Source of the DNA: a phage
Reading direction: 5' to 3' (one strand)
DNA length: 64,000 bases
Assembly (NCBI GenBank): GCA_023802575.1
Contig: GCA_023802575.1_3947.1
Shown piece after piece: positions 14,628 through 53,292 of the stretch. The notes beneath the pieces were generated by a model. That model had not been told where the DNA came from, did no database searches, and saw only the letters and a list, made by a program, of their open reading frames with translations. Every line of letters begins with the position of its first letter. Position 1 is the stretch's first letter. The position numbers and the translations under genes were made by a program.

Positions 14628-15176
14628 ATGGAAAAAGATAACTTAAAAGAAGTTGAAGGTAACTACCTAGTCCTTGACTGGAATGATATTCGTGGAGCAC
14701 TCTCCGAAGAAAATTTTGACTGGTTCGAACAAATCATCTTTGCAGTACGGCATAACAGAGAAGTTGAAAATGGTAAAGAACCACTTGAAGGAATCTTTGT
14801 AGAAAGGTCTTATCCGTTCTATGAAGACACTTTGCAGAAAGTTAAGATGTACTTTAGACAGAAGAACCGTAAAGTGGTCACTATGGTCTCTCTTGGTGGA
14901 CAGAGTATGTCTGTGATGGAAGATATCAACCCTAAGAGACCGAGTAAAGGTGTTTGTATAAAAATCACAGGTCATGAAGAGTATATCTCAGTGGATGACT
15001 TTAGTGCATTCTGTAGTGGTTCTTGTGTCTTTAATGGTTTTCACTATGATATCCGAGTTTACCCAATCAAGGGTGATGGTATCATGATGCAGGTATTCGA
15101 TAATAACAATGGATTTACTCATTTTTATCAGACAACCAAGTCATCACTGAAAACAGTTCTGGAAACACTGATTTAA
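14628..15176 (+). CDS. hypothetical protein (~182 aa)
   Basis: ORF 14583..15176 with start moved to first ATG after upstream stop. Confidence 0.5.
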   Translation: MEKDNLKEVEGNYLVLDWNDIRGALSEENFDWFEQIIFAVRHNREVENGKEPLEGIFVERSYPFYEDTLQKVKMYFRQKNRKVVTMVSLGGQSMSVMEDINPKRPSKGVCIKITGHEEYISVDDFSAFCSGSCVFNGFHYDIRVYPIKGDGIMMQVFDNNNGFTHFYQTTKSSLKTVLETLI

Positions 15177-15187
15177 AATATCTTAAG

Positions 15188-15216
15188 AGCCTCCTTAATT
15201 GGGGGCTTTTTATTGA
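15188..15216 (+). terminator. intrinsic terminator-like hairpin
   Basis: AGCCTCC-TTAATT-GGGGGCT then TTTTTATT. Confidence 0.55.
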
Positions 15217-15229
15217 GTAAAATTTACGA

Positions 15230-16340
15230 AATTTATATTTTTTATAAAATTTATCGGTTGTTCCAACCTCTGGGTCACCATGATATGTGAACAAAGTATC
15301 TAACCTTCTTAACAGCCTTCTTAATCTTACTCTCTATATAGTTATATAGTACTATATAGTATCTTAGTAACTATCTAGTGGTCTTAATAGCCATCTGTAT
15401 AGCCCTTCTAAATAGCCCTCTAAACACTCTTCTAACAAGCCTTCTTAACAACCTATACAATCACCTTAACCATCTCTCTATACCCTCTTAGAAGCTCCTA
15501 TACACCTCTTAATCTCTATGTCAGCTATGTTACCCTCTATAGGTGTTCACTAGGTATTACTAAGCCTCTATATAGACTGTTTTAACAAACTTAACAGGAA
15601 TGTCTTCACAGACCTTATCTCACAAGGTCTAACACGGCACTAACAAGGTATCTTATAAGCCTGTTTCTACCTGTATTTTTAAAAGACTGTATAGGTAATT
15701 ATTCAGATTTTTAAAATTTTTATAAAATAGGACTATCAAGTCATTTTTTAGGGTCTTTGAAGGAACTGAAAAATATCTGTAGAAGATGTATATCTGCTTG
15801 GTAGCCCTTAACATCCCTGTAACATCCCCTTTGCAAAATTTTAAAATATCCTTAACAATCTCTTAACAGTTCTCACATCTTCTTAACATCTCTTCAAAGG
15901 TCTTAACAGATTCTTAACAGAACTAACAAGGGCTTAACAGTTTCTTAACAGTCGATACATGGTCTTTATAGTCTCTTAACAGATGACTAACAAGAGCTAA
16001 CAAGTTAATTTTTAAGAGTTATTTTGTTAAGATAATTAACAAGTTCCTAACGAGTGTCTAATCTTTTTAACAAGCTATTAACATGGTCACTACTCTTCTC
16101 TTATCGTTCCCTTTCCTTTCTTAGTGATTCTTTAAACATACCTCTTAAAAGCTCTCTATAGCTCCTTGTAAGCTCTTTTAAGCCTCTCCCTAGTAATTAC
16201 ACCCCAACTGTACAGATACCTCTTTATAGGGCTTTACAGGGGCTTTAAAGGCTATGCCAAAGGTTCTTACAAGGCTTTTACGTGGTTTTAACAGAGATTT
16301 AACAAGGGGCTAACAAGTTGCTAACAAGTGCCTTAAAAGC
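15230..16340. repeat. ORF-free region densely packed with CTTAACAG / CTAACAAG short motifs (phased array densest at ~15850-16085)
   Basis: ~30 copies of (C)TTAACA(G)/CTAACAAG with 10-13 bp spacing; no ORF >=60 aa in any frame across 15177-16821. Confidence 0.7.
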
Positions 16341-16394
16341 ATAACTATGTAGGATTTGTTAAGAAATTGTTAAGAAAATGTTAAGGGGGCTAGC

Positions 16395-16447
16395 ATTTAC
16401 GTAACTTTATAGCCCCTTTTACGTAACTTTAAAGCCCCTATAACATA
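16395..16447. repeat. tandem direct repeat TACGTAACTTTA(T/A)AGCCCC x2
   Basis: two adjacent copies ~26 bp apart. Confidence 0.5.
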
Positions 16448-16872
16448 CTTTTTAGTGACTATCAAGAGGTTGTTTAGTTATTCACAAGAATACTAATGAG
16501 ATGATAAAGCTTACACCCTTATAAGATTCTTTTAAGCCTCTATAAAGCCCTGTAAAGAGCTTTTTAAGGCTGGTTAATGCAATCCCTTAAGTTAGGTTGA
16601 TAAGGCTGATATAGAGCTTTATAGAGCGTTTAAACGGTTGCCCTTCCCTTTCGGGTTATAGGCTTATATTTAAGTTGATTTGATAAAAGGTTATAGAGTA
16701 AACTATAGAGTTATTGCTTTTTAAGGTATGAGATAGATTCTATCGAATTAGTGGGATAGATTCTAGGAAGGAAAGGGAAAGGGTTGTATAGAGGCTATTA
16801 CATAGACGTAAAAAAGCCCCTATGAGAAGGAGCTTTTCAGGTATCTGGGGCTATTTAGCCCCGCTGCGTCGA

Positions 16873-17121
16873 TTAGTTATAATCTTGCTTGTTGTAGTAC
16901 AGGGAGACAATTTTTTCTCCCCAGTAGTGGTAGTGATATTCCTCGTTTATGGCTTCTTTTACAGCGTCCTTCCAAAAGTCATCGGTAGGGTTATAATCTG
17001 GTAGCACCTGCTGAATCAGCATTTTGATAAGGTCAAAGGTGTTATTTGTTCCACCGATATCGAATTTTGCATCAAGTTCGTGGCAGCCATAAGCATTAAC
17101 AGTTACGCGGATAGTTGACAT
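16873..17121 (-). CDS. hypothetical protein (82 aa)
   Basis: six-frame ORF; GGAGA SD upstream; small-gene cluster. Confidence 0.5.
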   Translation of the reverse strand: MSTIRVTVNAYGCHELDAKFDIGGTNNTFDLIKMLIQQVLPDYNPTDDFWKDAVKEAINEEYHYHYWGEKIVSLYYNKQDYN

Positions 17122-17189
17122 AATTTAGATTCTCCAGTTTAGGACTTTGTTTAGTGGGGAAGGTCATTCCCTCCCCGTTGATTAGTAAT
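17122..17189 (-). promoter_or_regulatory. conserved intergenic cassette type B (GGGGAGG..CCTTCCCC hairpin, conserved leader, SD GGAG)
   Basis: shares CAACGGGGAGGGAATGACCTTCCCCACTAAA..AAGTCCTAAACTGGAGA with 5 other intergenic copies. Confidence 0.6.
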
Positions 17190-17453
17190 TTACTGCATAT
17201 TGGCGTATGTTGCAAGCCTTTTTTCGTTGTATTTTGTAAGAATCTCACAAGACAAAACATCGTACTTTGTAACAGCGTTGCCTTTGTCGAGGTCAAAGAA
17301 TCCAAATGCTTTACCATCTTTGAATCCGACAACTTCGTAAGATTCTTTGATGATTTCACCATTGAATAAATCGCTTTCGATACGGTGAAACAGTGCTACA
17401 TCTTCTTTGTCAGTTGCAATCTGCAATAGTGTGGTTAATTCTACGTTTTCCAT
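17190..17453 (-). CDS. hypothetical protein (87 aa)
   Basis: six-frame ORF; cassette upstream. Confidence 0.5.
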   Translation of the reverse strand: MENVELTTLLQIATDKEDVALFHRIESDLFNGEIIKESYEVVGFKDGKAFGFFDLDKGNAVTKYDVLSCEILTKYNEKRLATYANMQ

Positions 17454-53035: not shown

Positions 53036-53209
53036 GTAAGCCTCTTTTAAGTAACTATTAAGTTTTAATCTTTTATCTTAACGTATTCTATACGTTATAC
53101 TTTAAAGCTTTTTAAAAGCTATTAAATAATCTTTTAAGAGTTTTAAAGTATCTGTATAGTTAAACTGTTAAGTAACCTTTTAAGTAAAAACCCACTTCGC
53201 AAAGATTAA

Positions 53210-53233
53210 CACCTTGTCAAGTACATTGTCAAC
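53210..53233. promoter_or_regulatory. 24-bp conserved motif CACCTTGTCAAGTACATTGTCAAC upstream of DNA polymerase gene
   Basis: 23/24 identical to 7365..7388; followed by TTGCTT..17 nt..TAATGT promoter-like spacing. Confidence 0.5.
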
Positions 53234-53292
53234 TTGCTTTTTATAATTTTTTGCAGTAATGTATGAGGTTAATGATTTTAGAGGGAGTAAAA

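Follow-up and report, generated by a model that had tools for sequence, protein, structure and literature searches.

The stretch of DNA analysed here (64,000 nt; contig GCA_023802575.1_3947.1; referred to as the window) carries a 1645-bp gene-free region between two convergent transcription units, and within this region lies a 591-bp segment, 15800-16390, that we take to be the short direct terminal repeat (DTR) of a Felix O1-like phage. Judged by its sequence matches, the window is that of a Felixounavirus, a Felix O1-like myovirus. The gene-free region used as a query matches 256 phage records, 191 of them at a query coverage of at least 80%, with the best matches at 88-93% identity. Nearly all of these records are Felixounavirus genomes (Felix O1-like phages of Escherichia, Salmonella and Shigella hosts) or Citrobacter Moogleviruses. 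The gene content of the window includes 26 tRNA genes, rIIA/rIIB, ribonucleotide reductases, primase/helicase, DNA polymerase and ligase. No terminase gene, including the small terminase TerS, was found when sought in the window, and the large terminase TerL lies outside the 64 kb together with the head and tail genes of the packaging and structural module. The gene-free region and its borders hold the following features:

15185..15210, plus strand: rho-independent terminator of the upstream plus-strand unit, with a 10-bp stem and a T-run (-15.2 kcal/mol, z -3.6).
15213..15799, no strand: left untranslated flank, unique DNA that would adjoin the DTR at one virion end.
15800..16390, no strand: short DTR of 591 bp, mapping to the exact terminal duplications of relatives.
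15802..15813, plus strand: left boundary word TAGCCCTTAACA, 2 nt inside the terminus.
15850..16085, plus strand: main phased array, 14 copies of (T/C)(C/T)TTAACA(G/A) or CTAACAAG at spacings of 9-11, 20, 31 and 39 bp.
16284..16330, plus strand: second array, four copies of T/CTAACA(A/G) exactly 11 bp apart.
16356..16386, minus strand: block of three inverted copies (TGTTAAG) at 11-bp spacing, immediately next to the right terminus.
16379..16392, minus strand: right boundary word TAGCCCCCTTAACA, an inverted copy that spans the terminus.
16391..16810, no strand: right untranslated flank.
16811..16838, minus strand: rho-independent terminator of the downstream minus-strand unit, with an 11-bp stem and U6 (-14.0 kcal/mol, z -3.8).

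The initial annotation, made from the sequence alone, had described an interval free of open reading frames (ORFs) of 60 or more amino acids between convergent transcription units, and both statements hold. No ORF of at least 60 aa is present within 15177-16821, the longest inside being 53 and 37 aa, and a 59-aa ORF at 15115..15294 on the minus strand overlaps the left edge. On the left, a plus-strand ORF stops at 15176, just before the hairpin at 15185-15210. On the right, the minus-strand ORF at 16873..17121 is followed by the hairpin at 16838-16811. An intrinsic terminator thus closes each side; the z values compare its folding energy with that of shuffled sequences. The left terminator was also picked up by a sequence scan, and terminators are annotated at the homologous sites in KhF2 and Mordin on the left and in Mordin on the right. 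According to the annotation of the relatives examined, the genes neighbouring the region encode small hypothetical proteins. Depositors have annotated the stretch itself with terminators, unnamed repeat_regions or inconsistent tiny ORFs, with no function assigned.

Homology to phages with recorded physical ends makes it all but certain that 15800-16390 is a short DTR, present at both ends of the packaged DNA. For vB_EcoM-Ro111lw, a Felixounavirus, a T7-like DTR of 613 bp was called by PhageTerm (PMC6454146). Both ends of the Ro111lw record lie in the homologous non-coding region, at the equivalents of window positions 16390 and 15800, and the 613 bp with which the record starts are repeated identically at its end. 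With window positions 15801-16391 (591 bp) as the search query, the query ends fall within 1 nt of the record ends of D4, E9, ECP2307, CRP22, SLAM_phiST56, Pr103Blw, NBEco004, NBSal004 and Citrobacter HP1. The record ends are exact duplications in Pr103Blw (581 bp, annotated as sDTR and terminal repeat) and in HP1 (570 bp), and a length of 581 bp was also given by PhageTerm for Pr103Blw in the literature on Felix O1-like DTRs (PMC4837284, PMC6454146, PMC8303462). The boundary sequences agree to the nucleotide in Ro111lw, Pr103Blw, HP1 and NBSal004, so that records of different laboratories and genera share these ends.

Experimental evidence comes from UAB_Phi87, in which Bal31 digestion and run-off sequencing gave a DTR of 608 bp, Bal31 having degraded two discrete fragments (PMC4837284). 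The UAB_Phi87 segment between the same boundary words measures 614 bp. As its GenBank record is not opened at the termini and holds no DTR feature, the comparison used the sister phage UAB_69 and anchoring on the boundary words. The TerL of Felix O1-like phages is reported to cluster with DTR-type terminases (PMC4837284). The window holds a single DTR copy because the assembly was closed through the repeat. Unique untranslated DNA borders the copy on both sides, 587 bp on the left and 420 bp on the right, in all about 1 kb between the two terminators, and the terminal gene clusters are transcribed outward, toward the physical ends.

Among the roles that the initial annotation had put forward for the region (replication origin, packaging site or partition-like centromere), the genome-end and packaging part is supported, because the homologous segment is an exact DTR in the records of many relatives and its ends were mapped experimentally in UAB_Phi87. 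A headful pac site of the P22, SPP1 or P1 type was considered and rejected, because the ends of the relatives are fixed and exact rather than permuted. Partition finds no support: in the relatives examined, none of the neighbouring genes, judged by annotation, is a par gene, and the phage is lytic.

The DTR is filled with copies of a short motif, TCTTAACA, whose core is TAACA, and further cores lie in its left flank. The region contains 28 TAACA cores on the plus strand and five on the minus strand, where an order-1 Markov model predicts 2.7 ± 1.7 (maximum 8 in 300 simulations); an order-3 model is uninformative as a null because it absorbs the motif itself. Against expectations taken from the rest of the window, CTTAACAG occurs eight times (0.08 expected) and CTAACAAG seven times (about 0 expected). 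Core density reaches 17 per 300 nt here, compared with at most 5 anywhere else in the 64 kb. The spacing between neighbouring cores is 9-13 bp in 15 of 27 cases and exactly 11 bp in 11 of them, the remainder being mostly 20, 31 or 33 bp. The 14 copies at 15850-16085 share one helical face (Rayleigh R = 0.91 at a period of 10.25 bp; maximum of 0.82 under the null in 3000 trials). The family of roughly 30 copies that the initial annotation had placed here, densest at about 15850-16085 and spaced by a helical turn, is therefore real, and its density exceeds what base composition predicts. Orientation within the DTR is likewise ordered, with about 20 plus-strand cores running inward from the left boundary and three minus-strand copies running inward from the right.

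Conservation was measured in an alignment of 12 genomes, three of them Moogleviruses with about 76% identity. The non-coding region scores 0.83-0.95 over most of its extent, compared with 0.83-0.84 in the neighbouring genes. Within the DTR, TAACA cores are conserved at 0.978 and other positions at 0.853, a core value that none of 10,000 permutations reached. Conservation rises from 0.76-0.89 at the adjacent positions to 0.96-1.00 exactly across the five bases of the core. In 11 genomes of Felixounavirus and Mooglevirus, DTR lengths span 570-694 bp. The larger indels in the repeat measure 11, 11, 21, 22, 49 and 71 bp, four of the six (11, 11, 21 and 22 bp) corresponding to whole repeat units.

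Both boundaries of the DTR carry the same word, TAGCCC(CC)TTAACA, in mutually inverted orientation. The pattern TAGCCC(N0-2)TTAACA matches just twice in 64 kb, both times at a DTR boundary (0.03 expected). Across the 12 aligned genomes, the left boundary, GTATATCTGCTT|GGTAGCCCTTAACA (the bar marking the terminus), is invariant save for one substitution in Mordin, and the right boundary, TGTTAAGGGGGC|TAGCATTTACGTAAC, is nearly invariant. The pair of words recurs in every related locus with both boundaries except that of Sf13, where the left copy alone is exact.

The architecture extends to a third genus. Erwinia Kolesnikviruses align to the DTR of the window only over about 76-86 nt at about 74-77% identity, and TCTTAACA arrays nevertheless fill their DTR region, the sequence of which is otherwise barely alignable. 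In Hena2, TTAACA is the most frequent 6-mer of the terminal region, with 18 copies at a spacing of about 11 bp, and blocks of opposing orientation face both ends. HP1 (76% identity) and Hena2 keep the pattern of core orientation, and in both an inverted block adjoins the boundary. Kolesnikvirus M7 has an exact DTR of 444 bp with recognisably homologous boundaries (TAGCC on one side, AGATATACA on the other). The Kolesnikvirus boundaries are homologous but built on a different word.

From the helical phasing, the selective conservation of the cores and their persistence across genera we infer, on good grounds, that the repeats are protein-binding sites. The following mechanism may be envisaged. 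In replicating concatemers, one DTR copy would join neighbouring genomes. The phased TCTTAACA arrays in and beside it would load the packaging complex, made up of the large terminase and an additional recognition factor, along one face of the DNA, and the complex would then cut at the two near-invariant boundary sequences. As the word is inverted between the boundaries, in the simplest model each strand would be nicked once, with about 591 bp between the nicks, and strand-displacement synthesis would then give each daughter genome a full repeat. Such a scheme of nicking and strand displacement has been proposed for T7 and T3. That the arrays serve as a packaging platform we rate at slightly under an even chance; the combined claim, that the segment is the DTR and its arrays are cis-acting sites for terminase assembly, packaging and cutting, we hold to be somewhat more probable than its negation. 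A stronger version, that the phased TCTTAACA arrays and the inverted TAGCCC(CC)TTAACA words make up the complete cis-acting packaging signal of the Ounavirinae, read by a factor other than a classical TerS and cut by symmetric nicks on opposite strands, is offered tentatively and is the less likely one. The factor would not be a classical small terminase because none is recognisable in Felix O1.

Several points weigh against this interpretation. The ends of this particular phage are deduced from relatives that are 76-93% identical, and the feature named DTR in UAB_69 is 2 nt wider on each side. The cuts are not exactly symmetric to the word: one lies 2 nt beyond it and the opposite one 2 nt within it. 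Moreover, the staggered-nick model is borrowed by analogy from T7 and T3. Replication slippage alone may yield indels of unit size, and the two largest indels (49 and 71 bp) are not whole helical turns. Finally, Felix O1 has no recognisable small terminase (PMC3185647), and TerL lies beyond the window.

The best-surviving alternative is that the arrays are iterons of a replication origin, where an initiator would coat the phased repeats and melt the adjacent AT-rich block, perhaps alongside a role in packaging. The repeats are indeed iteron-like and mostly in direct orientation, and a well-conserved block of 86% AT at 15677-15726 lies 75-120 bp from the array. Some linear phages with DTRs have origins near their ends, such as the secondary origins of T7 at phiOL and phiOR. 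In contrast, the units of 8-11 bp are shorter than classical iterons of 17-22 bp, the genes next to the region in the relatives examined include no annotated initiator, and the region sits between convergent terminators. Neither the sole DnaA-box match (16478) nor the IHF match (16460) is conserved. The replication genes and the minimum of the cumulative GC skew lie at a distance of about 37 kb, where a divergent AT-rich gap contains a palindrome. We therefore regard an origin at the arrays as unlikely. The distant gap, 53036-53262, separates a minus-strand unit on the primase/helicase side from the plus-strand DNA polymerase gene. It is AT-rich, coincides with the GC-skew minimum and contains a near-palindrome with 27-nt arms (53097-53151), making it a candidate divergent promoter region or replication origin.

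Slightly less probable still is the view that the arrays have no sequence-specific function, being tandem repeats made by slippage, with the DTR serving as homology for concatemers and its boundaries alone mattering. The gain and loss of units seen in the indels of 11, 11, 21 and 22 bp would fit such an origin, as would the tolerance of T7 toward most insertions near its ends (10.1101/2024.10.10.617714). Slippage does not, however, explain why cores are conserved at 0.98 and spacers at 0.85, a result beyond all permutations, nor why a phase of 10.25 bp is kept so tightly when the spacings vary irregularly from 9 to 39 bp. It also fails to account for the persistence of core and orientation layout in Kolesnikvirus, where the surrounding sequence is nearly unalignable.

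Alternatively, the arrays could act during DNA entry by binding a host or virion protein for end protection, anchoring or paced ejection in the manner of T5. The arrays are no more than a few hundred bp from either physical end and, being present on both virion ends, would be part of the first DNA to enter the cell; in T5, the terminal repeat has a large, conserved, repeat-rich untranslated region, the injection-stop region, that is tied to two-step injection (10.1101/866236). Felix O1-like phages are not known to transfer their DNA in two steps. Conserved DnaA boxes are lacking in the present region, however, and a role in entry leaves the inverted boundary word exactly at the cut sites unexplained; we consider it improbable, a little more so than slippage.

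A non-coding RNA or small peptides, suggested by the ORFs of 25-53 aa that some records annotate here, can be set aside as very improbable, since an Rfam scan of 14900-17200 returned one sub-threshold match (Phe_leader on the left terminator; 24.2 bits against a gathering threshold of 55, E 0.41), sigma-70 promoter-like sites show no excess (11 against 9.2 ± 2.8 in shuffled sequence), both flanking units terminate before the region, and the annotated ORFs differ among records, one of them crossing the physical terminus. The coding sequences in question, labelled as small hypothetical proteins in the terminal-repeat region, are those of Meda (L003, 3023-4243), UAB_69 (L007, 1365-1660) and UAB_Phi87 (L018, 2026-2813). 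Their variation between records and the crossing of a genome end make them probably over-annotation.

The untranslated flanks on either side of the DTR contain further repeats. On the left, repeats of the CTTCTTAACA / CTTCTAA type occupy 15297-15460, with a 12-nt period at 15382-15450, and enclose a run of CTATATAGTA / TATATAGT at 15334-15379 that corresponds to the palindromic run noted in the initial annotation at about 15330-15350. Four further TAACA cores (15583-15645) and an AT-rich block (15677-15760) follow. Conservation of the left flank (0.83-0.95) equals or exceeds that of the flanking coding DNA. On the right, a 22-bp tandem TTTACGTAACTTTA(T/A)AGCCCCT, present twice at 16396-16439 with 95% identity, lies directly outside the DTR boundary and accounts for the tandem AGCCCC repeats seen earlier at about 16395-16447. 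Repeats of the CTTTAnAGCCC family recur at 16520-16560 and 16600-16632. The polypurine tract, expected at about 16760-16790, is present at 16765-16783, though poorly conserved: it falls within the least conserved part of the region (16701-16800; 0.61-0.67), which also holds a GATAGATTCTA duplication. Some relatives carry insertions near 16470, of 26-27 nt in UAB_69 and UAB_Phi87.

A second family, GGGCTTTAnAG / CTTTAnAGCCC (16220-16255, 16405-16440 and 16520-16560), takes opposite orientations across the right DTR boundary. It includes a 31-nt inverted repeat (16220-16250 and 16529-16559; 27 of 31 positions complementary) that is centred exactly on the right terminus in the window. A strict palindrome was nevertheless rejected, as arm distances of 126-163 bp and complementarity of 19-27 of 31 positions vary among the other genomes; on account of this variation, the symmetry is taken to reflect the opposite orientation of the repeat family. 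Separately, a direct repeat, GACTATCAAG...TTTAG, occurs at 15731-15751 and 16457-16477, its copies 81% identical and each located about 68 bp beyond the nearer DTR boundary. The IHF-consensus and DnaA-box matches fall on the right copy. These two host-factor sites, one IHF-consensus match (16460) and an adjacent DnaA-box match (16478), were discarded as candidates because neither is conserved in relatives; Fis, Chi and GATC sites were sought in the region and none was found.

Elsewhere in the window, a tRNA cluster of 26 genes occupies 192-5203 on the minus strand and includes two genes each for tRNA-Met, -Gln, -Lys, -Arg and -Ser and three for tRNA-Leu. Adjoining it is a 471-aa protein (5369..6784) that matches a PHROG family of RNA-binding proteins; a PhageMaP preprint compares its Bas63 counterpart to Ro60. 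GATC is absent from positions 1-64000, with about 229 sites expected from a Markov model and 225 from base composition. Also absent are CTGCAG (23 expected), CCATGG (8.2) and GGTACC (8.0), and CAGCTG (one site, 14.3 expected) and ATGCAT (one site, 15.9 expected) are nearly missing. The missing palindromes suggest that restriction or methylation sites, of the Dam/MboI type and others, are strongly avoided.

As an element the DTR is not new, having been mapped experimentally and annotated in GenBank records. The array architecture, in contrast, seems to be undescribed: in the literature searched, we found neither the phased TCTTAACA arrays nor their selective conservation described, nor the inverted word at the boundaries or the persistence of these features across three genera of the Ounavirinae. 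Felix O1-like phages are widely used in typing, biocontrol and therapy of Salmonella and E. coli, and most deposited genomes are opened arbitrarily, with this stretch left unannotated or filled with spurious small ORFs. Placing the terminal repeat at 15800-16390 would fix the true start and end of the genome, and with the boundary words the ends of any Felixounavirus or Mooglevirus assembly could be located by a simple sequence rule. The recognition and duplication of short DTRs are poorly understood outside T7 and T3. With phased arrays, an inverted word at both presumed cut sites and no recognisable TerS (PMC3185647), the Felix O1-like family provides a clean, testable system. If the stronger version of the packaging model were true, it would describe a packaging system that generates DTRs in a new way, and its signal would be a portable cassette for engineering or transduction in work with these therapeutic phages.

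Compared with known systems, the Felix O1-like DTRs of UAB_Phi87, Ro111lw and Pr103Blw are the same element, at the same locus and with the same boundary sequences as in the window; the papers cited above for these phages give only the existence and length of the repeat. The terminal repeat of T5 resembles the present one in containing a large, conserved, repeat-rich non-coding region (10.1101/866236). It differs in its length of about 10 kb, its ordered DnaA boxes and its two-step injection, none of which was found in the window. In lambda, the R-sites of cosB, and in SPP1, pacL and pacR, are short terminase-binding sites in helical register beside a cleavage site. With several phased short sites near a cut, they may be functional analogues of the arrays, although these phages have cohesive or headful-permuted ends and a known small terminase, whereas the window phage would have exact DTRs.

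The closest analogue of the internal architecture is the terminal repeat of T7. Like T7 and T3 with their SRL and SRR arrays, the window has a short exact DTR in untranslated DNA, with fixed ends and a word of 7-8 bp repeated in and beside the repeat. The first 400 bp of T7 contain 11 copies of CCTAAAG, within the 160-bp repeat and next to it, and the word recurs ahead of the right repeat. The motif of the window is TCTTAACA rather than CCTAAAG, and by eye no end sequence is shared; because the motifs are unrelated, the likeness is one of analogy, not homology. Further differences are that the DTR of the window is about four times longer and holds most of the copies, that its phage is a myovirus without a recognisable TerS, that nothing at the T7 ends obviously corresponds, by eye, to the inverted boundary word, and that the near-end promoters of T7, phiOL and phiOR, have no demonstrated equivalent in the window. 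When insertions were mapped across the whole T7 genome, the end regions proved mostly tolerant, the exceptions being positions 142 and 162 on the inner side of the repeat (10.1101/2024.10.10.617714), a pattern that fits signals in which the boundaries are critical and the arrays redundant.

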